Assembly: GCF_042688385.1 (NCBI RefSeq)
Contig: NZ_JBHUPY010000007.1
Span: 130,110 to 194,109, forward strand
DNA from: Herpetosiphon sp. NSE202
Lineage (GTDB): Bacteria; Chloroflexota; Chloroflexia; Chloroflexales; Herpetosiphonaceae
DNA: 64,000 nucleotides
Direction of reading: 5' to 3'
The notes under the pieces: model-generated
What the model saw: the letters and a program-made list of their open reading frames with translations, nothing else
What the model was told of the DNA's origin: nothing
Databases searched by the model: none
Program-made: the position numbers and the translations under genes
Shown: positions 15,710 through 56,316 of the stretch, piece after piece
Layout: every line of letters starts with the position of its first letter
Position numbering within the stretch: the stretch's first letter is position 1

Positions 15710-16492
15710 TTGATTATGCCACTAAGCTCAGCCAATAATCAACCACGTTTGCCAGCTCAACCCAATCGTTTGGGCGAATGGTTGGTCTATCGGGCACTCA
15801 TTCGGCCAGCCTTGTGCAAAACCTTCGATCAAGTATTGCTCAATGTTGGGTCAGCCAGTGACATCTTGCGCAGCCGCGAGCCAATTTTGTGCTATGTGAC
15901 CCATACAAGCTGGTGGGATGGTCATCTTGCCTTTGAGCTATTTCGCAACGTCTACCCACGCCGCCATTTTTTGATGATGGAAGAAGCGCAACTCGCCCGT
16001 TATTTCTTCTTCCGCTGGTGTGGTTGCTTCTCGGTTAACCGCCAAGAACCGCGTGAGGCCCTGCGCTCAATACGCTACGCCAGCACCCAGCTTCAACACC
16101 ACAGCCACGCCTTAGTTTGGGTTTTTCCGCAGGGCCAAATTATACCGCCAGATCGCCGTCCGCTCCAACTTTTTCGCGGTGTCGCCGATATTGCCACCCG
16201 CACTGGCAATTTGTGGTGTTTGCCAGTTGCCCTGCGCTATGAATTTAGCGGCGAACAACGCCCAGTTTCCTTAATTCGTTGTGGCGAGCCAACCTGGGTC
16301 GATGCTGGCACAAGCCGCGACCAACTGCAACCCCAATTAGAGCGCAATTTGACCAGCGCCGCCGACCAACTCCGTGACGAGTGGAATCAGCAAGATCTTG
16401 CCAATTTTCAATCAATTTTGCAGGGCACAGCCTCAGTTAATCACCGCTTCGACCACATTTTGGGGCCAATCGTGCGCTGGTGGCAACGATAA
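15710..16492 (+). CDS. Lysophospholipid acyltransferase (PlsC-like) family protein
   Basis: HxxxxD acyltransferase motif (HTSWWD), FPQGQ-type motif, 260 aa. Confidence 0.55.
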   Translation: MIMPLSSANNQPRLPAQPNRLGEWLVYRALIRPALCKTFDQVLLNVGSASDILRSREPILCYVTHTSWWDGHLAFELFRNVYPRRHFLMMEEAQLARYFFFRWCGCFSVNRQEPREALRSIRYASTQLQHHSHALVWVFPQGQIIPPDRRPLQLFRGVADIATRTGNLWCLPVALRYEFSGEQRPVSLIRCGEPTWVDAGTSRDQLQPQLERNLTSAADQLRDEWNQQDLANFQSILQGTASVNHRFDHILGPIVRWWQR

Positions 16493-16935
16493 GGATGAAG
16501 GATGAGGGATGAGGGATGAGGGATGAGGGGTGAAGGGACGAGGATTCAGGATTCAGGAACAAGCAACCACGAAGAGCACGAAGAACGCGAAGGCTGAGGA
16601 TAAACACATTAATAATTCAGCACTATCACTTAACGCAGAGGCGCAGAGATTCCAGGGCTATTGGCTATTGGCTATCGGAACATCATTCGTGCAATTCGTG
16701 CAATTCGTGGCTAAAATAGAGATTTGGCTATTGGCTTTGGGCTTCTGCGAACATCATTCGTGATCTTCGTGTTCTTCGTGGATCAATTTATTAACGCAGA
16801 GGCGCAGAGGAAATGTGGCTATTGGCTATTGGCTGTTGGCTCTGGGCTAGCAGAAACCAAATCCTAAAAATCTGTGCCAATCTATGGCTAAACAATAATG
16901 CTTCGTGTAATTCGTGCAATTCGTGGCGAAAAAAA
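16493..16935. repeat. Mosaic intergenic repeat cluster 1 (heptamer/decamer tandem modules)
   Basis: (GATGAGG)n 16493-16560; CACGAAGAGCACGAAGAACG 16567-16592; TTAACGCAGAGGCGCAGAG 16630-16648 and 16791-16810; (GGCTATT)n 16656-16678 and 16817-16850; (TTCGTGCAAT)n 16686-16710 and 16901-16927; CTTCGTGTTCTTCGTGGATC 16755-16784. The region lies between convergent genes. Confidence 0.85.
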
Positions 16936-24510: not shown

Positions 24511-24535
24511 ATCAGGCTGACGCTCAACGCAACGC

Positions 24536-24945
24536 CCCTTTCCTTATAATGAGGAGAGGGGTGTTTTTGTTAAGGCAGAAGTCAAAAGTCAAAAGTCAAA
24601 ATAGCCGCTGAAACCACGAAGAACGCGAAGAACGCGAAGTACATTTTAGCCACAGATTGCCCAGATTGTTTTGATTATCTTTCCACAGCCAAAAGCCATT
24701 AGCCTTGGAATCTCTGCGCCTCTGCGTTAAATGCCGATCCACGAAACATACGAAGGCTTTTATTTTTTCGCCACAGATTACACAGATTATTATTTTAATC
24801 TCTCAAAGTCATCAGCCAGGAACCTGAACCCTGACTACTATTGACTCCTTTTTTTGGTTTTTGACTTCTGACTTTTGACTTTTGACTTTAAAAAACGCTT
24901 CCCCCACAAACTCGTAGGTTCATGAGGGAAGCAAGGCTGAGAAAT
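24536..24945. repeat. Mosaic intergenic repeat cluster 2
   Basis: (GTCAAAA)n about 24575-24600; CACGAAGAACGCGAAGAACGCGAAG about 24613-24640; CTCTGCGCCTCTGCGTTAA about 24708-24730; (GACTTTT/GACTTCT)n about 24855-24895. Lies between convergent lon and nuoN. Confidence 0.8.
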
Positions 24946-30974: not shown

Positions 30975-31060
30975 TCCCGAAACAAGGCAGAAGGCAAAAG
31001 TCAGAAGTCAAAATACTCAGTTTCTATTTTTTGCCTTCTGCATTTTGCATTTTGCCTTTA
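30975..31060. repeat. Repeat element (imperfect inverted GTCAAAA/GCAAAAT modules) inside the nuo operon between nuoI and nuoJ
   Basis: aaggcagaaggcaaaagtcagaagtcaaaa ... ttttgccttctgcattttgcattttgcctt. The two halves are near reverse complements, giving a long imperfect hairpin in the nuoI-nuoJ spacer. Confidence 0.75.
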
Positions 31061-31552
31061 CTACAGGTCTATTTGGGCCGGTGGGTTAAGTTGTTTGCCA
31101 GTTTGTTGCAAGACTGGTGGCACTTCGCCGTGGCCTTTATCGACCGGCACCAACAACATCTCTTGGGTATAGATCGAGGCACGGCGATCGTAGAAGGCTA
31201 ATTCATATTGGTGCTCAAGCACAATTGCGTTGGTTGGGCATGCATCTTCGCAATAGCCACAAAAAATACAACGCAACATATTAATTTCATACACCGCCGC
31301 ATGGCGCTCGCCTGCAGAGCGTGGCTTAGCCGGATCGTTCTGGCCAGGCACAACATAAATTGCATCAGCAGGACAAGCTGCCGCACACAGCGAACACCCA
31401 ATACACCGCTCTAAACCATTAGCAAAACGCTTCAGTTCATGCCGCCCCCGGAAGCGCTCGCGGACAGGCCGTTTGACCTCAGGATATTCAACGGTCACAG
31501 GCTTTTTGAAGAGATATTTCGCCGTGGTTTTGAGACCCTTAAAATAGGCCAT
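31061..31552 (-). CDS. nuoI: NADH-quinone oxidoreductase subunit I (2x[4Fe-4S] ferredoxin)
   Basis: CIGCSLCAAACP and CIFCGYCEDACP motifs. Start moved to MAYFKGLK (31552). Confidence 0.85.
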   Translation of the reverse strand: MAYFKGLKTTAKYLFKKPVTVEYPEVKRPVRERFRGRHELKRFANGLERCIGCSLCAAACPADAIYVVPGQNDPAKPRSAGERHAAVYEINMLRCIFCGYCEDACPTNAIVLEHQYELAFYDRRASIYTQEMLLVPVDKGHGEVPPVLQQTGKQLNPPAQIDL

Positions 31553-31567: not shown

Positions 31568-32159
31568 TGGCGATTCCTTTCTCGGTGCGTGACTCCCATG
31601 GCGTTCACGCCAAAACCGCCACTGTGCGTCAAGCGGCGGTGCAATGTTTTTCGAATCGGTGCCGTCGCGGGCGTGTTTATTTTATCACAATCTCTTGATA
31701 AGCCAAACAGGATGAGAAAAGGATGAAGGATGAATTATGCGGGAGTAAAAGAAGAACAAAGAGCATAGGGATTGGGGATCGGTTGTTAGGGATTGGGGAT
31801 TGGAGATTCAACTCTGCGTCTCTGCGTTAAATATCTGTTCGTTTAACGCAGAGGCGCAGAGAACCAAAGGATGAAATGCAAAAGGCAGAAAGCAAAAATT
31901 AAAAGGCAATAGCCTATAGCCTGTAGCTGTAATGGTTCATTGCGTTAACCATGGCCTGATCCCCTCACCCCCTAGCCCCCTCTCCCGCCCGCGAGGCGAG
32001 GGGGAATCACGAAACCCATGCTCCCCTCGCCCGCATTCAGTGGGAGCGGGGCTGGGGGTGAGGGCATGTTCTTGATTGCCAATCCAATGAACCATTACAT
32101 GTAGCCTGTAGCCTTTCATCACATCTTCGTGGCCCTTCGTGTCCTTCGTGGATCAAAAC
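31568..32159. repeat. Mosaic intergenic repeat cluster 4, with two long palindromes
   Basis: (GGGATTG)n about 31780-31810. Palindrome CTCTGCGTCTCTGCGTTAAA / TTTAACGCAGAGGCGCAGAG about 31813-31861. GGCAATAGCCTATAGCC modules. About 200-bp inverted repeat 31905-32115 centred on the G/C-rich module CCCTCACCCCCTAGCCCC...GGGAGCGGGGCTGGGGGTGAGGG (31961-32063). Ends with CTTCGTGGCCCTTCGTGTCCTTCGTGGATC 32120-32158. Confidence 0.85.
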
Positions 32160-33508: not shown

Positions 33509-33581
33509 TCCCTGATAGCTCAGTTGGTAGAGCAATTGACTGTTAATCAATGGGTCCTAGGTTCGAGTCCTAGTCAGGGAG
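33509..33581 (+). tRNA. tRNA-Asn (GTT)
   Basis: Cloverleaf is readable: acceptor tccctga/tcaggga, D-arm gctcagttggtagagc, anticodon loop ctGTTaa, T-arm ggttcgagtcc. Followed by CCA. Confidence 0.85.
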
Positions 33582-33604
33582 CCACTTCTTTTTACAAATG
33601 ATAA

Positions 33605-33677
33605 TCCCTGATAGCTCAGTTGGTAGAGCGGTTGACTGTTAATCAGCATGTCCTAGGTTCGAGTCCTAGTCAGGGAG
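33605..33677 (+). tRNA. tRNA-Asn (GTT), second tandem copy
   Basis: Near-identical to the first copy (differs in the anticodon stem and variable region). Anticodon loop ctGTTaa, followed by CCA. Confidence 0.85.
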
Positions 33678-33686
33678 CCAAAGCAT

Positions 33687-34963: not shown

Positions 34964-36259
34964 CTATTCAGAGCGGCCTACAAATGGCAAATACAATTTC
35001 CAACTTAGCGGAGTTATAGTCGGCGATGTGATGGTGACGGTTGTTGTTGGAGTGCTGGTTGGCGTGGTGCTGGTTGGCGTGGTTGATGGTGGAGTGCTGG
35101 TTGGCGTAGTAGTGGTTGCCGTCACGCTCGGTGGAGTGGTTGCAGTTGGCGTGATGGTTAAGGTCGGCGTAATCGTGACAATTGGTGTGATGCTTACCGT
35201 TGGTGTTACGGTTGGGGTAATCGTTGCAGTTGGCGTAACCGTTGCGGTTGGAATGATGGTTGCCGTCGGCGTGACCGTTGCGGTTGGCGTAACCGTTGCA
35301 GTTGGAATAACGGTTGCCGTCGGTGTGATGGTTGCGGTTGGCGTAACCGTTGCCGTTGGAATGATGGTTGCGGTAGGCGTGACGGTTGCCGTTGGGGTAA
35401 TCGTTGCGGTTGGTGTGATGGTTGCTGTCGGGATGATCGTTGCGATTGGCGTGACGGTTGCTGTTGGCGCAGGAATGTCAGCAAACAAGATCATGTATAG
35501 GGCACTATTTGTCCCTATATTGCGCGCATCACCGGACAGAAAATTGAAGTCGGTTTGCCCATTGACATTGCGATAATAACCATAGTTTGGCGCACCTAAC
35601 GGTACCGAGCCAGCAGCAAAGGCTGGAGCACCTGCACCGCCACGAATTGCTGTAGTCAGGTTCGTCGTATCAACAAGGCCAGCACCGCTATCGCCACGAA
35701 TATTGATCGTAACACCATGGTCGCTGAGGCCAGTCAGAGTCAACGGGTTCGTCAACGGAATTGAAATATCGTAAAGTCCTCCCGCTACGAGGTTACCGCC
35801 GCCAAGATCAAAGCTGAGTAAACCACCAACAGGGTTTGTAAACACCTGCGTATTGGTAGCATTGAAACTATCCCAAAATTGAATTCGAACTTGGATGTTG
35901 GTATAGGTGGTTGCGGAGAGTGAAACCAGCCCAAACTGGAGTGCCGTAATATCGCTTGCTGTTGCCAGATTGAACGGTTGTCCCATATAGGTATGGGGTG
36001 CGTTTGCAAAATTAATAAAATCATCAGCCCCAGTGATTGTATCGAATACTGGGGTGATTACCTGCGGCAAACGAGCATTCGTCAGTAACGTGCCACTAGG
36101 CTTGAGTTGCCCCATTGATGTGTCGCGCGCAACTTCAGGCAAGCCCTGTGCTGGACGTGTAGCGCTGGTCGTCGTTGGCGAAACTGCCAAGCCGGCAAGC
36201 AGCGCTAACAAACAACCAACAGCACTCAAAATTCCCAACTGGCGATGGATTCGATTCAT
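34964..36259 (-). CDS. Secreted protein with N-terminal globular domain and C-terminal (TPTATI/V)n Pro/Thr repeat region
   Basis: Signal peptide MNRIHRQLGILSAVGCLLALLAGLAV. About 16 hexapeptide repeats TPTATVTPTATI..., then a Thr/Pro/Ser-rich tail. The + strand ORF 34929-35576 is an antisense artefact of the repeat. Confidence 0.55.
   Translation of the reverse strand: MNRIHRQLGILSAVGCLLALLAGLAVSPTTTSATRPAQGLPEVARDTSMGQLKPSGTLLTNARLPQVITPVFDTITGADDFINFANAPHTYMGQPFNLATASDITALQFGLVSLSATTYTNIQVRIQFWDSFNATNTQVFTNPVGGLLSFDLGGGNLVAGGLYDISIPLTNPLTLTGLSDHGVTINIRGDSGAGLVDTTNLTTAIRGGAGAPAFAAGSVPLGAPNYGYYRNVNGQTDFNFLSGDARNIGTNSALYMILFADIPAPTATVTPIATIIPTATITPTATITPTATVTPTATIIPTATVTPTATITPTATVIPTATVTPTATVTPTATIIPTATVTPTATITPTVTPTVSITPIVTITPTLTITPTATTPPSVTATTTTPTSTPPSTTPTSTTPTSTPTTTVTITSPTITPLSWKLYLPFVGRSE
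35040..35480. repeat. 18-bp period tandem repeat array (coding for PT repeats)
   Basis: Units like ggttgccgtcggcgtgac / ggttgcggttggcgtaac repeated about 20 times with point variation. Confidence 0.8.
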
Positions 36260-38859: not shown

Positions 38860-39250
38860 TGGATTCTAACTCTAATGTTACATTGGATGGGCAAGCAGTG
38901 GAATGCCCTCACCCCCAGCCCCGCTCCCACTGAACGCGGGCGAGGGGAGCACAGACTCTGTGGTTCCCTCGTGTCCGTTCGACGGGCGCGGGGGTGAGGG
39001 GAAATCAGTGGTTAAGTGATGTACTATTATATCTAACGCCTATGCCATTTTTGCTTCTGATTTTTGGTAGCCTCCCTAATCCTTTATCTTTTCCATTGGC
39101 CCAGATTCGCTCAAATTATTCTTTCCCAAAGCCAAAAGACAATAGCCAATAGCCTGATCCCTTTTGACTTCTGACTTCTGACTTCTGACTTCTGATTTTT
39201 GCTTTGGCATTTCATCCTTCATCCCTCATCCTTCATCCTTTCAAAATTAC
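38860..39250. repeat. Mosaic intergenic repeat cluster 5
   Basis: G/C-rich hairpin module CCCTCACCCCCAGCCCCGCTCCCACTGAACGCGGGCGAGGGGAGC...CGGGCGCGGGGGTGAGGG at 38906-39001; CAATAGCCAATAGCC; (GACTTCT)x4 at about 39165-39195; CATCCTTCATCCCTCATCCTTCATCC at about 39215-39240. Confidence 0.85.
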
Positions 39251-42099: not shown

Positions 42100-42316
42100 A
42101 CCCCTTTTATAGAAGTATGAAGGATGAATTATGAGGGATGAAATACTTCTTCAGCCATTCACACCTTATTTATTGAAGGATGAATTTCATTGCTCACATA
42201 TTCACACCTTTTTAGAAATAAGCAATAATTCAAAGCCGCAAAAATCCTATCCCTCATCCCTCATCCCTCATCCCTCATCCCTCATCCCTCATCCCTCATC
42301 CCTCATCCCTCATCCT
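42100..42316. repeat. Mosaic repeat cluster 6 with (CCTCATC)x9 heptamer run
   Basis: GAAGGATGAATTATGAGGGATGAAA modules, then (CCCTCAT)n 42250-42316. The run overlaps the last 4 codons and the stop of proB. Confidence 0.85.
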
Positions 42317-43412
42317 TAACAAAGGCTACCATATCATCGCGGTGAATGACTTCATCGCCGTAGGAATAGCCGAGGATACTTTCGATGTCGCTGGTGCGTG
42401 AGCCTTTGATTTGAGCAACTTCGTGGGCGGCGTATTGGCATAAGCCACAGGCAATCGCCTGCCCATCGGGAGCGACAATCGCTACGGTTTGGCCACGTCG
42501 CCACTCGCCCTCAACCGCCACAATTCCTGCTGGCAACAGGCTGCGGCCTTGCTGAGTGAGGGCTTGCACCGCCCCAGCATCAACCGCAATATGCGCTTGG
42601 CGCACGCGCTCGGCCATAATCCAACGCTTGCGGCTCTCCAAGCGGGTGCTGACTGGCCGAAAGCGCGTGCCAATACTCTCGCCAGCGGCCAAACGCAACA
42701 GCACATCAGGCTCGTTGCCAGCAGCAATGATCATGCTTGTGCCAGCCCGCGTGGCTAATTCGGCAGCCTGAATTTTGGTGAACATCCCGCCAGTGCCCCG
42801 ATGCGAGCCAGCCGCCCCCGCTAAGGCATAGACTTGTTCGGTTACCACTGCCACATCGTCGATTAACTGAGCTTCGGGGTTATGGCGCGGATCGGCGCTA
42901 TACAAGCCAGCAATATCGCTCAAAATGACCAAAAGCTGCGCATCAACCAAATTTGCCACCAACGCCGAGAGCGTATCGTTATCGCCAACCCGAATTTCAT
43001 CAACCGCCACCGCATCGTTTTCGTTGATAATCGGCAGCACGCCAATTTCCAAACAGGTTAATAAGGTTGCGCGGGCATTGAGGTAGCGCACCCGATCGCG
43101 CAGATCGGCGCGGGTCAGCAGGGTTTGGGCAACTGGCACATCGTAAATTTCAAATAATTGGCCGTAGATGTGCATCAATCGACCTTGGCCAACCGCCGCC
43201 AAGGCCTGTTTATGGGTCAATTCTCGCCGCCGTTTGGGAAAGCCCAAGCGCTCCCAACCTGCTAATACCGCCCCCGAGGAAACCAACACGACTTCGTGGC
43301 CAGCAGTGCGCAAGTGGGCCATCTGACGGGCCAAATCGACCATGCGCGGGCGCTGTAAACGGTCAGTGCCATCGGTCAAAACGCTGGTGCCAAGTTTAAT
43401 TACAATTCGCAT
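42303..43412 (-). CDS. proB: Glutamate 5-kinase (with PUA domain)
   Basis: MRIVIKLGTSVLT...VLVSSGA amino-acid kinase motifs, C-terminal PUA domain. C-terminal KDEG plus TGA are encoded by the heptamer repeat. Confidence 0.9.
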   Translation of the reverse strand: MRIVIKLGTSVLTDGTDRLQRPRMVDLARQMAHLRTAGHEVVLVSSGAVLAGWERLGFPKRRRELTHKQALAAVGQGRLMHIYGQLFEIYDVPVAQTLLTRADLRDRVRYLNARATLLTCLEIGVLPIINENDAVAVDEIRVGDNDTLSALVANLVDAQLLVILSDIAGLYSADPRHNPEAQLIDDVAVVTEQVYALAGAAGSHRGTGGMFTKIQAAELATRAGTSMIIAAGNEPDVLLRLAAGESIGTRFRPVSTRLESRKRWIMAERVRQAHIAVDAGAVQALTQQGRSLLPAGIVAVEGEWRRGQTVAIVAPDGQAIACGLCQYAAHEVAQIKGSRTSDIESILGYSYGDEVIHRDDMVAFVKDEG

Positions 43413-43429: not shown

Positions 43430-43795
43430 AAGATGAGTATAAAACGCTATTTTAACGCCTAGCTCCAAATTGATTTCAACCAAACCATAAAAGCTGCGTT
43501 TTGAAACCACGAAGAGCACGAAGAGCACGAAGATCGAAAATCACGAATGTTATTTTTTTAGCCACGAATTACACGAATTGCGCCAAGCTGTGGCTATCGG
43601 CTATTGAGTTTTGACCTTTGACTTTTGACCTTTGATTTGGTATTTCATCCCTCATCCTTCAGCCTTCATCCTTATTTTCTGCCTTTTGATTTTTGACTTC
43701 TGAATTTGCTCTATGCTCTATGTTCTATGTTCTAAAATCAACAGGCCACAGAGCAAAATACTCCATGGCCTGTAGGAACTTAGTCGTTATATCAA
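43430..43795. repeat. Mosaic intergenic repeat cluster 7
   Basis: CACGAAGAGCACGAAGAGCACGAAGATCG; CACGAATTACACGAATTG; GGCTATCGGCTATTG; (GACCTTT/GACTTTT)n; CATCCCTCATCCTTCAGCCTTCATCC; (CTCTATG)x4 at about 43708-43735. Ends with the hairpin ACAGGCCA...TGGCCTGT just downstream of secA. Confidence 0.85.
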
Positions 43796-47592: not shown

Positions 47593-47861
47593 TCCTCAAT
47601 CTGATCCACGAAGGGCACGAAGAGCACGAAGAACGAGAAACCACGAAGAGCGAGAAACCACGAAGGACGCGAAGCTCGCGAAGGCTGTTTTTAGCCACAG
47701 ATTTTTAGTATGAGGCTATGGGCTATGGGCTATGAGCTTTTGGAACCAGTGTCATTCACCAAACGTTCCGATAGCCTATAGCCTTCAGTCTATAGCCAAA
47801 CATCCTCTGAGCCTCTGCGTTAAAAATACGCTTTTGCCTTTTGCATTCTGCCTTTTGCCTT
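47593..47861. repeat. Mosaic intergenic repeat cluster 8
   Basis: CACGAAGGGCACGAAGAGCACGAAGAACGAGAAACCACGAAGAGCGAGAAACCACGAAGGACGCGAAG; TTTTTAGCCACAGATTTTTAG; (GGCTATG)x3; ATAGCCTATAGCC; GAGCCTCTGCGTTAAAAAT; TTTTGCCTTTTGCATTCTGCCTTTTGCC. Confidence 0.85.
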
Positions 47862-48449
47862 TCATCCTTTTAACGCTTCGATGCTACCAACCAGCAAGGG
47901 CACGCTATCGTTGATAAAGTTTTCGAGGTTTTGGCAGCGATCACTATAGAGCCAGCGGGCGGCCAAGGCAAATACCGACCAACTGAGCATAGTTGCCAAA
48001 AGTTGGCGTTGCATTGCTGCTACGTTGCGTAACGGCAAATAATGATCAAGCCATGTTTGAATATGTTGCTCTAGCATGCGTTTGATCTGGGTTTCAGCCA
48101 ACGAATCGAAAAAACGATGATATTGATTGCACTGGCCATGAATCATCGCCCAATGGTCGGCGATTGCCCACAGCAAAGCTTGCATATAGCGGGTTGGCGT
48201 GTCGGGATAATGCTGCATACGCCGATCAAGAAACATCATAAAGCCATCACGAATCAGTTCATCAACTAAGGCATATTTATCGCTGAAATGAGCATAGAAG
48301 GTTGCCCGATTAATCGTCGCAGCTTCGGCAATCTCGTTAACTGTCACTTCCTCGAAGGTACGTGTGCGCAAGAGCTGAATCAAGGCATCGAGAATTAATT
48401 TGCGCGTGCGCTTGGTGCGCGGGTCAATTTTAACAGCGTTTCCCAACAT
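47862..48449 (-). CDS. TetR/AcrR-family transcriptional regulator
   Basis: N-terminal HTH TVNEIAEAATINRATFYAHFSDKYALV. Confidence 0.85.
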   Translation of the reverse strand: MLGNAVKIDPRTKRTRKLILDALIQLLRTRTFEEVTVNEIAEAATINRATFYAHFSDKYALVDELIRDGFMMFLDRRMQHYPDTPTRYMQALLWAIADHWAMIHGQCNQYHRFFDSLAETQIKRMLEQHIQTWLDHYLPLRNVAAMQRQLLATMLSWSVFALAARWLYSDRCQNLENFINDSVPLLVGSIEALKG

Positions 48450-49475: not shown

Positions 49476-49747
49476 TTTCCCTCACCCCAACCCCTCTCCC
49501 GTCCAACGGGCGAGGGCTTTTTGATTCCGTGGTTTTCGAATGATTCAGCGACTCCCCCCTCTCCCGTGGCGCGGGCGAGGGGCTTTTGGTTGTGTGGGTT
49601 TGGCATGATTGGGGGTGAAAACGGGTGCTCCCCCTCGCCCGCGTTTTCGTGGGCGAGGGGGTTGGGGGGTGAGGGAACGCTCCACCACCGACCAATCGCT
49701 CAAAACCGACCCTTGAAAGAATGGGGCTGGGGGGTGAGGGAACTACA
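49476..49747. repeat. Mosaic intergenic repeat cluster 9 (G/C-rich hairpin modules x5)
   Basis: Alternating forward and reverse copies of CCCTCACCCCAACCCCTCTCCCGTCCAACGGGCGAGGG / CTCCCCCTCGCCCGCGTTTTCGTGGGCGAGGGGGTTGGGGGGTGAGGG. Confidence 0.85.
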
Positions 49748-52496: not shown

Positions 52497-52519
52497 GCCC
52501 TGAGCCTCCTATAGTGTGA

Positions 52520-52750
52520 TCACGAATAAGTGATGAGATTACTTGATTCAGAATCTTGCAATTCTGTTTCCAGATGCTGCCATTCATTAGCAGAAAATTC
52601 AGCTAGTGTCGTAGCAATTGATTGTTGATAATGCTGCTCACGCCATCGTTCTATCAGTGCATAGATTACCCATAGAACAAGTGCTACTCCAGCCAATCTA
52701 CCAACGCGAACGATGGTAATTAATGCTGAGTGCGGAGCAAGATGGCTCAA
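52520..52750 (-). CDS. Small hypothetical membrane protein between sufU and sufB
   Basis: 76-aa ORF with one TM helix (LAGVALVLWVIYALI). 4-nt overlap with sufU. Confidence 0.3.
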   Translation of the reverse strand: MSHLAPHSALITIVRVGRLAGVALVLWVIYALIERWREQHYQQSIATTLAEFSANEWQHLETELQDSESSNLITYS

Positions 52751-54387: not shown

Positions 54388-54399
54388 AACTCACCAATA

Positions 54400-54540
54400 T
54401 CCGATCGACAAAGGACACGAAGCAGAGAAACCGCGAAGAGCACCAAGAATTGCTTTTTGATCCAAGAAGGACACGAAGAGCACGAATGTTTAGATTTGGC
54501 GCTTCGGTCAGGGTTCATAGGCAATTAATGGGTTGGGATG
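54400..54540. repeat. Mosaic repeat cluster 10a (CACGAAG modules) 3' of the GxxExxY pseudogene
   Basis: AGGACACGAAGCAGAGAAACCGCGAAGAGCACCAAGAA ... AGGACACGAAGAGCACGAATG. Confidence 0.8.
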
Positions 54541-54919
54541 TCAACGAACTAAACGTTTCCATTCCAACTTGCTCAGGCTGCCAAAATTAATCAATAGGCC
54601 AACCCGAAACTGGGTTGCTTTGAGATAATTAATCAGTTGCGCTTCTTCGAGCGTTGTCAAACGATTCAGCGCTTTTAGCTCAACAATAATTTGGTTGTAA
54701 CAAATAAAATCAGCAATATTAGGTTTTTTGGAGTAATTGCTGTTTGTAGCGAATTGCTAAAGATGCTTGGGCTGCGAATTGAATTTGGCGTTGAGTCAAT
54801 TCCAATTCAAGTGCTTCTTGGTACACTGCCTCTAAGAAACCACTGCCCAACTCGCGATGCACTTCTATCGCCGCTCCAACCACAGCGAACACTTCATCGG
54901 CCAAAAGAATCGTTGCCAT
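54541..54919 (-). pseudogene. Frameshifted GxxExxY (PD-(D/E)XK, PDDEXK_3-type) gene inserted within the suf operon
   Basis: The 5' part (54719-54919) encodes ...GSGFLEAVYQEALELEL...YKQQLL. The 3' part (54541-54720, other frame) encodes [59 protein letters not shown]. Total span is 379 nt (not a multiple of 3), so there is a frameshift near 54720. Confidence 0.7.
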
Positions 54920-55125
54920 CCACGCCTCCCAAAAACAGTTGGTTCCGAATTACTAGATACACAAACCAACTATTTTTGGGATGGCACAAAAAACAAACTT
55001 CGTGTCCTTGGTGCTCTTCGTGGATCACATCATTAAACTTCATCGACCAACAAATCATTTTCATCCACTTGTGAATCACACAAAAAACAAACTTCGTGTC
55101 CTTCGTGCCCTTCGTGGATCAAAAC
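54920..55125. repeat. Mosaic repeat cluster 10b with 17-bp-stem hairpin, 5' of the GxxExxY pseudogene
   Basis: Hairpin CCCAAAAACAGTTGGTT ... AACCAACTATTTTTGGG (54928-54980); CTTCGTGTCCTTGGTGCTCTTCGTGGATC and CTTCGTGTCCTTCGTGCCCTTCGTGGATC modules. Confidence 0.8.
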
Positions 55126-56316
55126 TTAGACTTTTTCGGCGACGATGGTTTCGACGCGTTCGCGTACAGCTTCGTCAGGAATCATATCGATGATTTCGCC
55201 GACAAAGCCCAACACGATCGTGCGCTTGGCTTCGGCAAATGGCAAACCGCGTGATTGCAGATAGAACAACTGCTCTTCGTCGATTTGGCCGCTGGTCGAG
55301 CCGTGGCCTGCCTTAACTTCGTTGGCATCAATCTCCAAACCTGGAATTGAATCCGAGCGTGAAGTTTTGCTCAAGTGCAAGGCATTTTCGCGCAAGTCGG
55401 AGTTGGTACCTTGGCCAGTGGCGGGTATTTTCACCATGCCATCGAAAACAGCATAGGCTTCATCATCAACCACGGTTTTGAAGTTAATTTGACCTTCGGT
55501 GTTCAAGCCAATGTGATTCAGTTTGGGTGCAACAAGCAAGTTTTGCTTGCCATTGCCATACAACAACCCATTCCAATTGACGCTTGAACCATTGCCGCTC
55601 AAATTGGCTTCCAAGGTAACGTGCTGCACAGCGCTGCCAACCACCACATTCAACCATTCTGCTTGGGCATCGCGGTTGATGCGGATTTGTTGGCTACCGA
55701 GCACATAGACATTGCTGTTCAGAATTTGTACGCTGCTGAAATTAACTTGGCCACCATCGCCAACCTCAATTTCAACTCCAGTCAAAACCACTGCGCTGGC
55801 ATCAAAATCAGCTGAGCTAATTTCTTCGATCACATTGATCGAGCTATGGCGCTCGGTCACGATCAGCGTGCGGGGCGCGACAATTGTGCCAGCCTTAGCG
55901 ACGTGATAGCGAATTCGTACCAATTCTTCGACCACAACATCTTTGGCAACGTGGATGAAAAGCCCACCGTTGACCAAGGCATTGTTGAGCGCTGAATAGG
56001 GATCGCGGCTGGTTTGCACAGCGCTGCCAAGCACCCGTTGCACCAACTCGGCATGGCTTTGAATCGCTTCAGCCAATGGCAAAATCGTTACGCCTTCAGC
56101 GCCAGCAAATTCAACCGAAACTTCGGCTTCAGCAACGCTATAATCGGCCAGATTAAAGCCCTTGAGGTTGGTTCGTCGCCAATCTGGTTGCTCGGCGGTT
56201 TCGAATGCTTGCCATGCTTCGCGGCGGCGGCTCGTGAGCCATTCTGGCTCGTTGCGGCTGGCCAGCAAGGCCTCAAATTGCGCCACATCAAAGGTAGATT
56301 GCAAATTAGCTGGCAT
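55126..56316 (-). CDS. sufD: Fe-S cluster assembly protein SufD
   Basis: SufB/SufD family without SufB's N-terminal region. Start moved to ATG 56316 (MPANLQST), overlapping the sufC stop by 11 nt. Confidence 0.85.
   Translation of the reverse strand: MPANLQSTFDVAQFEALLASRNEPEWLTSRRREAWQAFETAEQPDWRRTNLKGFNLADYSVAEAEVSVEFAGAEGVTILPLAEAIQSHAELVQRVLGSAVQTSRDPYSALNNALVNGGLFIHVAKDVVVEELVRIRYHVAKAGTIVAPRTLIVTERHSSINVIEEISSADFDASAVVLTGVEIEVGDGGQVNFSSVQILNSNVYVLGSQQIRINRDAQAEWLNVVVGSAVQHVTLEANLSGNGSSVNWNGLLYGNGKQNLLVAPKLNHIGLNTEGQINFKTVVDDEAYAVFDGMVKIPATGQGTNSDLRENALHLSKTSRSDSIPGLEIDANEVKAGHGSTSGQIDEEQLFYLQSRGLPFAEAKRTIVLGFVGEIIDMIPDEAVRERVETIVAEKV

Follow-up and report, generated by a model that had tools for sequence, protein, structure and literature searches.

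Repeat Clusters in the Window

The window analyzed here, a stretch of 64,000 nt from Herpetosiphon sp. NSE202 (contig NZ_JBHUPY010000007.1, positions 130,110 to 194,109), holds clusters of short tandem DNA arrays in the spaces between genes such as lon and nuoN, proB and secA, and sufS and sufD. The repeat family is dispersed, non-coding, grammar-bearing, hairpin-forming, and fast-evolving, and its 8- and 9-mer part is the arm system of GxxExxY nuclease gene cassettes that are found across phyla. A first-pass annotation, made from the sequence alone, had listed ten loci built from one vocabulary of 7–10-nt units. Tandem Repeats Finder (TRF) placed period-7 and period-9 arrays at nine of them, which do have a common vocabulary; the exception, 49476–49747, is a different, G/C-rich palindromic element without 7–9-nt arrays.

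A tokenizer with nine module classes found 41 short tandem arrays in the window, compared with about 0.65 in mononucleotide shuffles. The 7-nt periodicity that the first-pass annotation had noticed across unrelated units is real: 12 exact period-7 runs were observed against 0.0 in 20 shuffles. Exact period-9 runs numbered 3 against 0, and among the other periods from 2 to 15 the only exact runs were two of period 14, which are doubled heptamers. The 19-mer TTAACGCAGAGGCGCAGAG, an 8-mer in two copies, occurs 6 times with at most one mismatch (0.02 expected), and the CACGAAG doublet CACGAAGNNCACGAAG 28 times with at most two (0.25 expected), so that both exceed expectation at least 100-fold. At least five heptamer classes are present in the window. 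The CACGAAGAG unit has period 9, as does (TTCGTGCAAT)n, which had been taken for a 10-mer and whose actual unit is ATTCGTGCA. The classes are as follows.

Class A: unit GGATGAR, period 7
Class B: unit AGMACAT, period 7
Class C: unit AAGKCAR, period 7
Class D: unit GGCTNTN, period 7
Class E: unit GGGATYG, period 7
Class F: unit CGCAGAGN, period 8
Class G: unit CRCGAAGNN, period 9
Class H: unit CACGAATNN, period 9
Class I: unit CACAGATNN, period 9

The description of a dispersed, non-coding mosaic family holds, with 259 of 270 arrays lying outside called open reading frames (ORFs). The spurious ORF at 16530–16763 is present (77 aa, GTG start), and the statement that clusters read through in all six frames is overstated, several frames containing stops. 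At gathering thresholds Rfam returned only tRNAs in the window, without rRNA genes, and inside the clusters no family matched even at E values up to 1. A cyanobacterial origin, which the heptamers might suggest, was rejected: the cyanobacterial HIP1 motif GCGATCGC showed no enrichment in the window, and two proteins encoded there are 100% identical to proteins of Herpetosiphon sp. NSE202.

The clusters and the features that delimit them are listed below; > and < after a class letter give the orientation of an array. H. giganteus and a metagenome-assembled genome (the MAG) serve as relatives for comparison; an H. aurantiacus-like MAG is named as such.

16492–16925: cluster 1, convergent gap between an acyltransferase gene and SIR2; A> G> F> D> H< D> G< F> D> H<
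24531–24565, plus strand: lon intrinsic terminator at the left edge of cluster 2, kept in H. giganteus and the MAG
24572–24888: cluster 2, convergent gap between lon and nuoN; C> G> D< F< I> C<
24896–24933, minus strand: nuoN intrinsic terminator, conserved across species; right edge of cluster 2
30984–31059: nuo hairpin inside the nuo/ndh operon; (AAGGCAG/AAGTCAA)n, loop, (TTTTGCM)n
31719–32151: cluster 3; A> E> E> F< F> C> D< (insert, described below) G<
39126–39240: cluster 4, divergent gap beside merR; D< C< A<, that is (CAATAGC)n, (CTTCTGA)n, (TTCATCC)n
42112–42316: cluster 5, between hisPhos and proB
43508–43734: cluster 6, between proB and secA; G> H> D> A< C< B<
47607–47862: cluster 7, between nudix and tetR; G> G> D> D< F< C<, first element GATCCACGAAG
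54403–54487, plus strand: suf cassette arms 3' of the ORF, CACGAAG-type 9-mer arrays (CTTCGTG on the gene strand, GATC end)
54540–54919, minus strand: GxxExxY nuclease gene between sufS and sufD, with one frameshift near 54719
54999–55124, minus strand: suf cassette arms 5' of the ORF, two sets of GATCCACGAAG..CACGAAG 9-mer triplets (gene strand)

Grammar, Pairing, and Folding of the Arrays

The order of the modules is far from random. Across 360 kb of Herpetosiphonales DNA the adjacency F>D> was seen 14 times against 1.9 expected, A>B> 8 times against 1.1, and B>F> 7 times against 1.1, none of which counts was reached in any of 2000 label permutations, although the F-centered ones are partly biased because some of the Herpetosiphon loci were selected for the 19-mer. 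Neighboring A, B, and F arrays were co-oriented in 24 cases and opposed in 0. The module grammar raised by the first-pass annotation is therefore borne out. Its overall order runs GGATGAR, AGMACAT, TTAACGCAGAGGCGCAGAG, and GGCTATN, then CTTCGTG-type 9-mers in the opposite orientation. A recurrent composite block was seen in 36 aligned neighborhoods of the 19-mer: it starts with (GGATGAR)n, (AGMACAT)n, and sometimes (GGGATYG)n, followed by TTTAA-CGCAGAGGCGCAGAG; 6–8 nt after CGCAGAGGCGCAGAG come (GGCTATN)3-4 and GGAACAT, next (AATCTGTGN)n GGCTAAAA and/or (ATTCGTGNA)n GGCTAAAA, and at the end (CTTCGYGNN)n and then GGTTTC or GGATC.

Many clusters contain complementary array pairs, and palindromy is found solely between separate arrays. 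In cluster 1, where a (GGATGAR)n array begins at the stop codon of ORF 15710–16492, the G arrays at 16567–16596 and 16752–16781 are inverted partners (30 nt, 83%), and the 19-mer TTAACGCAGAGGCGCAGAG stands at 16630–16648 and 16791–16809. The outer arms of cluster 2, (AAGTCAA)n at 24565–24601 and (TTTTGAC)n at 24859–24895, are complementary over 37 nt (86%); with the lon and nuoN terminators at its two edges, this cluster sits between two terminators. Cluster 3 contains a hairpin of the 19-mer with its complement (31812–31831 with 31842–31861; 20 nt, 95% complementary). On the minus strand of cluster 5, (GGGATGA)x9.6 runs from the proB stop codon and pairs with imperfect inverse copies at 42112–42142. 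Cluster 6 begins directly downstream of the secA intrinsic terminator (43773–43741, minus strand), which is conserved across species.

All clusters that were fold-tested beat their dinucleotide shuffles, with z-scores from -2.8 to -6.4. The strongest fold was that of 31805–31868 (-6.4), followed by the suf cassette at 54395–55130 (-4.9, with nested stems), 42100–42320 (-4.8), 24560–24900 (-4.0), 16560–16700 (-3.3), and the nuo hairpin at 30975–31062 (-2.8).

GxxExxY Nuclease Genes Lie between the 8- and 9-mer Arms

The gene between sufS and sufD matches TIGR04256 (E 3.5e-40) and also PF13366 (PDDEXK_3). No sequence relative of GxxExxY was found in the PDB, and a predicted model of the protein has a PD-(D/E)XK fold. 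The ORF is enclosed by GATCCACGAAG-type 9-mer triplets and, on the opposite side, by complementary CTTCGTG arrays, the arms at 54403–54487 pairing with 54999–55027 and 55093–55124 (32 nt, 88%). In H. giganteus (L213, 9538–9927) the ortholog is intact, and in the MAG it has an internal deletion; both retain the same arms, which indicates that the cassette is old and that its ORF decays while the arms persist.

The gap between secA and proB presents the same arrangement with other words. In H. giganteus it houses a second GxxExxY gene, between TTAACGCAGAGGCGCAGAG and CTCTGCGCCTCTGCGTTAA; in the H. aurantiacus-like MAG the outer arms are kept and enclose heptamer and 9-mer modules, and in the window the arms are degenerate. 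Within the one genome of H. giganteus, the CGCAGAG-armed and CACGAAG-armed GxxExxY paralogues share 44% identity, and the CGCAGAG-armed protein shares 56% with a same-armed copy from Kiritimatiellia. When ORFs within 500 nt of the 19-mer were clustered over 116 loci, only housekeeping families and GxxExxY emerged. The first-pass annotation had suggested looking for a co-varying protein such as a RAYT/IS200-like transposase (RAYT, REP-associated tyrosine transposase). The gene tables of the syntenic loci list no such gene, and the protein found to accompany part of the vocabulary is the GxxExxY nuclease. The UniRef name of one H. geysericola GxxExxY protein (P0273), "NADH:ubiquinone oxidoreductase", is probably an annotation error.

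Arms and Nuclease across Phyla

The exact 19-mer was found in more than 116 stretches of species-representative genomes; by our own arithmetic, chance alone would give about 4 matches in 596 Gb. The hosts among the matches listed include Verrucomicrobiota, Kiritimatiellia, Planctomycetota, Acidobacteriota, Gemmatimonadota, several classes of Chloroflexota, Desulfobacterota, Nitrospinota, Lentisphaerae, and others, with finished chromosomes and megabase contigs represented. In other phyla the 19-mer is the start of a (N)CGCAGAG array, very often with an inverted partner 20–100 nt away, and the Herpetosiphon heptamer words are absent from these 19-mer loci. Three of these 19-mer loci have a GxxExxY gene between the arms. 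The layout is found in loci of Kiritimatiellia, Verrucomicrobiota, and Neomarinimicrobiota; L127, L008, and L108 show it. In Kiritimatiellia locus L008 (4100–4330), an arm unit is repeated at least three times 5' of the GxxExxY gene as a block of about 55 nt, ATAACGCAGAGGCGCAGAG..TTTTTTGGGGGCATTGCTACGGAGAGATAA. The tail GTTTTTTTGGGGG after the array is common to several loci of the Planctomycetes–Verrucomicrobia–Chlamydiae (PVC) group.

A sample taken directly by the gene gave the same picture. The GxxExxY family is very abundant, with more than 4000 sequence clusters matched; the entry for PF13366 gives its function as unknown and mentions "multiple transfers". Eighty metagenomic GxxExxY loci were collected, 73 of them with both flanks available, and the cassette layout was seen in about 50 of the 80. 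Complementary flanks scoring at least 14 were found in 46 of the 73 and in 0 of the shuffled flanks (median score 16 versus 7.6). The arms consist of tandem C-R-C-N-R-A-G words (CGCAAAG 20, CGCAGAG 10, CACAAAG 5, CACAGAG 5, and others), spaced by 8 nt in 63 cases and by 9 nt in 30, with a median of three units per arm at about 27 nt from either end of the ORF. The purine-rich arm lies 5' of the ORF in 47 loci, and the opposite arrangement occurs in 13.

Arm word and protein are correlated. GxxExxY pairs with the same word are 58.2% identical and pairs with different words 51.3%, a difference reached by 0 of 2000 permutations, and the nearest-neighbor protein has the same arm word in 25 of 53 cases (10 expected); because the metagenomic contigs come without taxonomy, this correlation could reflect shared host ancestry. 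Phages were considered as vectors for the cassettes and rejected: the 19-mer occurs in just 4 IMG/VR contigs, none of which carries GxxExxY.

Placement and Turnover between Species

The claim that nearly every longer intergenic gap is filled holds for gaps of at least 260 nt, 8 of 9 of which carry a repeat element; from 150 nt upward, arrays occur in 8 of about 17. The module tokenizer found no arrays at 1–16 kb or 56–64 kb of the window. Among gaps of more than 300 nt, convergent ones are occupied in 9 of 13 cases, co-directional ones in 18 of 41, and divergent ones in 6 of 16. A search for transcription-strand bias revealed a weak one only, with A, B, D, and F arrays in co-directional gaps 50 times sense and 30 times antisense, and G, H, and I arrays 13 and 23 times, respectively. 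This placement is that of DNA settling where it is least harmful, unlike that of promoter or untranslated-region elements.

The vocabulary is not confined to the 64 kb. Loci fetched by protein rather than by motif from H. giganteus, H. geysericola, the H. aurantiacus-like MAG, and a Chloroflexia MAG carry 0.24–0.87 arrays per kb, and the finished H. aurantiacus genome has the vocabulary at three distant sites (4.3, 5.6, and 6.1 Mb). No evidence points to an artefact of assembly or sequencing, or to a duplication within this region, and both can be dismissed for practical purposes: the vocabulary recurs in four named species and two MAGs, all assembled independently, with a finished genome and megabase long-read contigs among them. 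Two more distant relatives are without the Herpetosiphon vocabulary. One distant relative (L211, contig ERZ25070581, 225–273) has a heptamer-armed hairpin of its own, AGGGCATAGGGCATAGG - 15 nt - CTATGCCCTATGCCCTA, in which AGGGCAT pairs with ATGCCCT; such hairpins, each lineage having its own words, may be a general feature of the order.

Orthologous gaps in related species do carry clusters, with re-assorted content. The flanking genes of the window and H. giganteus are 93.6–96.8% identical at the nucleotide level, whereas the orthologous clusters align at only 26–87% and have different module strings. Lengths and contents vary at every locus and between species, without uniform length, defined ends, or target duplications. 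In the lon/nuoN gap, the outer arms are GTCAAAA/TTTTGAC in the window and GGATGAA/TTCATCC in H. giganteus and the MAG, the gene-proximal terminators being conserved. At the proB stop codon, (GGGATGA)n is found in three lineages (9.6 copies in the window, fewer in H. giganteus, about 9 in the MAG) and (AGTCAAA/GGCAGAA)n in the H. aurantiacus-like MAG. In the acyltransferase/SIR2 gap of H. giganteus, a composite of about 110 nt is duplicated in tandem.

A simple model would regard all arrays as plain microsatellites, slippage-prone simple sequence repeats (SSRs) born in situ in AT-rich spacers with neither element identity nor a link to a gene. Mrazek is said to have proposed in 2007 that a 7-nt polymerase footprint favors heptamer repeats. 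In keeping with such an origin, period 7 dominates, the number of proB GGGATGA copies at a single site varies by species, and the outgroup lineage has heptamer words of its own; a heptamer excess is also documented in other bacteria (PMC4692102, PMC4679880). Slippage accounts for copy number, but not for vocabulary, grammar, or pairing. Order and orientation of different units are fixed far beyond chance, complementary arrays are paired, an identical 19-mer recurs in more than 116 stretches from many phyla, and 8- and 9-mer arrays bracket GxxExxY genes. Plain microsatellites are thus an unlikely explanation of the whole.

Alternatively, the clusters could be functional cis sites, in which a conserved protein would bind the tandem words in RNA or DNA, one unit per subunit. 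Such a protein, which might have a cold-shock domain, be CsrA-like, or be dedicated to heptamers, would govern how the transcripts of neighboring genes terminate, how stable they are, or how they are translated. In favor of this view, clusters occupy the same gaps in every Herpetosiphon species compared, the GGGATGA array begins exactly at the proB stop codon in three lineages, the folds are stable, and regulatory roles have been proposed for heptamer repeats of Nostoc and Beggiatoaceae (bioRxiv 10.1101/2022.06.06.494920; PMC4679880). The turnover described above is difficult to reconcile with a conserved binder, since an unrelated word takes over in a sister lineage both at proB (GGGATGA replaced by AGTCAAA/GGCAGAA) and at lon/nuoN (GTCAAAA replaced by GGATGAA). 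Nor do the arrays clearly prefer the sense or the antisense strand of their flanking genes; cluster 2 is situated past both terminators, and Rfam gave no match inside the clusters. A regulatory role for the clusters therefore appears improbable.

Palindromic Elements, an Insert, and Other Features of the Region

Three further features of the window stand apart from the heptamer and 9-mer vocabulary.

31928–32099: insert resembling a miniature inverted-repeat transposable element (MITE), whose 15-nt inverted ends TGTAATGGTTCATTG are perfect and whose core is a G/C-rich palindrome
38893–39013: copy of the G/C-rich palindromic element, which does not belong to the heptamer vocabulary
49476–49747: several copies of the G/C-rich palindromic element, outside the heptamer family

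The G/C-rich palindromic family, CCCTCACCCC...GGGGTGAGGG or CCCTCACCCC..GGGAGCGGGGCTGGGGGTGAGGG, is represented at 31959–32067, 38893–39013, and 49476–49747. The motif at its end, GGGGTGAGGG, differs from the heptamer doublet GGGATGAGGG by a single mismatch, and H. giganteus has a copy in the lon/nuoN gap, where the window has none. The MITE-like insert, which carries one palindromic core, lies within an ATAGCCT/TGTAGCC heptamer array; the array thus served as its insertion site, possibly with duplication of TGTAGC.

The presence of a true MITE-like insert inside an array bears on a further explanation, namely that the clusters are elements moved by a transposase encoded elsewhere (RAYT, IS200/IS605, or other), either MITEs or relatives of repetitive extragenic palindromic (REP) sequences and bacterial interspersed mosaic elements (BIMEs). 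The likeness to REP/BIME had been drawn in the first-pass annotation, and it suits the layout, given a mosaic family of extragenic motifs with a grammar and frequent inverted arrangements. It does not extend to the basic unit, which is a direct repeat of 7–9 nt rather than a palindrome of 20–40 nt. In addition, the clusters are without uniform length, defined ends, or target duplications, and no transposase family occurs in the gene tables of syntenic loci, which leaves mobilization of this kind very improbable.

Several other observations were made in the region. Tandem tRNA-Asn(GTT) genes lie at 33509–33584 and 33605–33680, and a sub-threshold Rfam match to YrlA (Y RNA-like) extends over both (35.7 bits versus a gathering score of 69). 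Longer-period repeats inside long ORFs at 35039–35469 and 964–1100 (18/36/54 nt; 27/33/60 nt) appear to be coding sequence for repetitive proteins, with no relation to the intergenic arrays. Between 2000 and 10000 the G+C fraction is 0.39–0.45, compared with about 0.50 elsewhere, the genes are tightly packed on one strand, and module arrays are absent; this part may be an acquired island. A gene for a PIN-domain toxin and a small partner are inserted between nifU and sufB in H. giganteus (L213, 11638–12371), and the nifU/sufB gap of the window (52497–52746) is 250 nt long and without arrays. In H. geysericola (L124, 1–8905), a prophage-like block with a helicase, RusA, and a serine recombinase lies beside a truncated SIR2 (176 versus 243 aa); in other species this position is taken by a Mg-chelatase-like gene and lon.

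Relation to Known Repeat Systems

The short tandemly repeated repetitive (STRR) heptamers were reportedly described by Mazel et al. in 1990 from Calothrix PCC 7601. Like the heptamers here, STRRs and other long heptanucleotide SSRs comprise several families per genome, form short arrays of 2–10 copies that are dispersed and overwhelmingly intergenic, and differ in length between relatives. The hosts of STRRs are heterocystous cyanobacteria instead of the Chloroflexota predator Herpetosiphon, and their units presumably differ from GGATGAG, AACATAG, GTCAAAA, and GGCTATT. Unlike STRRs, the arrays described here are joined in a fixed order with 8- and 9-mer arrays, commonly as complementary pairs. 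More generally, dispersed intergenic heptamers are known from cyanobacterial STRRs, the SSR excess of Mrazek 2007, GGGAATC of Xanthomonas, GGGGAYT of Nostoc, and TAACTGA of Beggiatoaceae (PMC4692102, PMC4679880). The last three are also lineage-specific intergenic arrays near gene ends, and some of the Xanthomonas repeats form inverted pairs (PMC4692102); TAACTGA is common to distant phyla (Beggiatoaceae, cyanobacteria, and Bacteroidetes), which suggests transfer (PMC4679880). In contrast to the present clusters, each of these systems has one word and no multi-word grammar, and no flanked gene is reported.

The 8- and 9-mer arms are reminiscent of the intervening sequences (IVSs) of 23S rRNA known from Salmonella, Leptospira, and Coxiella (PMC4990558). 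The Coxiella IVS is a selfish element of 428 nt with a 28-bp terminal stem that is cut by RNase III, a decaying S23p ORF in the loop, and, before the ORF, three tandem GACAGAT units whose number is strain-variable (PMC4990558). IVSs and cassettes share a small ORF (about 125 aa) in the loop of a stem of about 25–28 bp formed by terminal inverted repeats, short tandem repeats just 5' of the ORF, decay of the ORF with persistence of the stem, and a distribution that points to horizontal transfer. They differ in that the cassettes lie between protein-coding genes or inside operons rather than in helix 25 or 45 of 23S rRNA, and encode a GxxExxY PD-(D/E)XK nuclease rather than the four-helix-bundle S23p. 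The window copies, moreover, are mostly without an ORF; with respect to RNase III, they show folding potential.

Like the present clusters, REP/BIME and REPIN/RAYT systems (PMC3116915) are extragenic, hairpin-forming mosaics of a few motifs in alternating orientation, enriched at 3' ends and in convergent gaps, and they serve as targets for other insertions. The difference in unit has been given above; in addition, the gene associated with the present arms is a PD-(D/E)XK nuclease gene within the hairpin, instead of one for a transposase that is encoded elsewhere. The features that define MITEs, namely terminal inverted repeats, target duplication, and uniform length, are absent from the clusters, and MITE features are confined to the insert at 31928–32099.

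These precedents, the dispersed intergenic heptamer arrays and the layout of the 23S rRNA IVSs, contradict the view that no element class of such organization had been described. The heptamer layer is the STRR/SSR phenomenon in a new phylum, and the 8- and 9-mer layer an IVS-like cassette system. What appears to be new is the link between the two layers and the conserved C-R-C-N-R-A-G triplet arms of GxxExxY genes. As far as the literature was covered, neither the repeats of Herpetosiphon nor these words nor any repeat arms of GxxExxY genes were found to be described, so that "undescribed" is provisional.

A Proposed Two-Layer Explanation

Taken together, the clusters are probably two layers of non-coding, hairpin-forming repeat DNA. 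One layer would be the tandem 8- and 9-mers, each C-R-C-N-R-A-G plus 1–2 nt, with words that include CGCAGAG, CACGAAG, CACGAAT, and CACAGAT; these would be the inverted arms of small IVS-type cassettes that carry the GxxExxY PD-(D/E)XK nuclease gene, most copies here having lost that gene or never having had one. The other layer would be Herpetosiphon-specific heptamer microsatellites, GGATGAR, AGMACAT, AAGKCAR, GGCTATN, and GGGATYG, often in the position of outer inverted arms. Both layers would travel jointly as composite blocks of fixed module order and accumulate where insertion is harmless, that is, after terminators, in convergent gaps, and in stem-tolerant spaces between cistrons. Slippage, copying between hairpin arms, recombination of dispersed copies, and replacement of whole interiors would account for their fast turnover. 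By analogy with IVS stems, the stems of about 25 bp in transcribed copies may be cut or trimmed by RNase III, and such processing would make the insertions harmless. A further step would be that the nuclease recognizes and acts on its own arm words. In sum, we infer that the clusters are selfish or neutral hairpin DNA, composed of cassettes, gene-less remnants, and lineage-specific heptamer arms.

It is important to note that several observations weigh against this explanation. In about 400 kb of Herpetosiphonales DNA, heptamer arms were never seen to enclose an ORF, and the heptamer layer is therefore tied to the cassettes only by co-occurrence and grammar, the latter with the bias noted for its F-centered counts. 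In the composite block, the F arm precedes G, H, or I arms of another word; these cannot pair with F, and thus the block cannot be read as a mere cassette without its gene. No clean pair of empty and filled sites with a target duplication was found, so that mobility is not demonstrated, and the suf cassette is vertically inherited. Clusters beyond terminators may never be transcribed, in which case the RNase III idea does not apply to them. Finally, the agreement between arm word and nuclease is open to the host-ancestry reading given with those data.

A wider version of the two-layer explanation, which is more speculative and on present evidence doubtful, would hold that IVS-like selfish cassettes exist outside rRNA genes throughout bacteria, each with a GxxExxY gene and about three C-R-C-N-R-A-G repeats per side. 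The nuclease would recognize its own repeat word and home into gene-less arm pairs or hairpin loops, and the nuclease and arm lineages would co-diverge and cross phyla together. Insertion into operons would be harmless, as the stem would be removed from the RNA. On that view, nested nurseries and graveyards of such cassettes would make up the Herpetosiphon mosaics, with the heptamer arrays as older or derivative arms.

Implications

Reports of intergenic heptamer repeats in bacteria go back to 1990, and their over-representation was flagged in 2007, with no accepted origin or function. The present analysis ties part of one such vocabulary to a concrete gene, that of an abundant nuclease family of unknown function, and to the long-known, unexplained intervening sequences of 23S rRNA. 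For Herpetosiphon, the clusters yield hypervariable loci, which are useful for strain typing, and spurious ORFs, which are a hazard for annotation. If the proposed connection is true, the function of GxxExxY proteins, the origin of IVSs, and the repeat-filled spacers would become one testable system.

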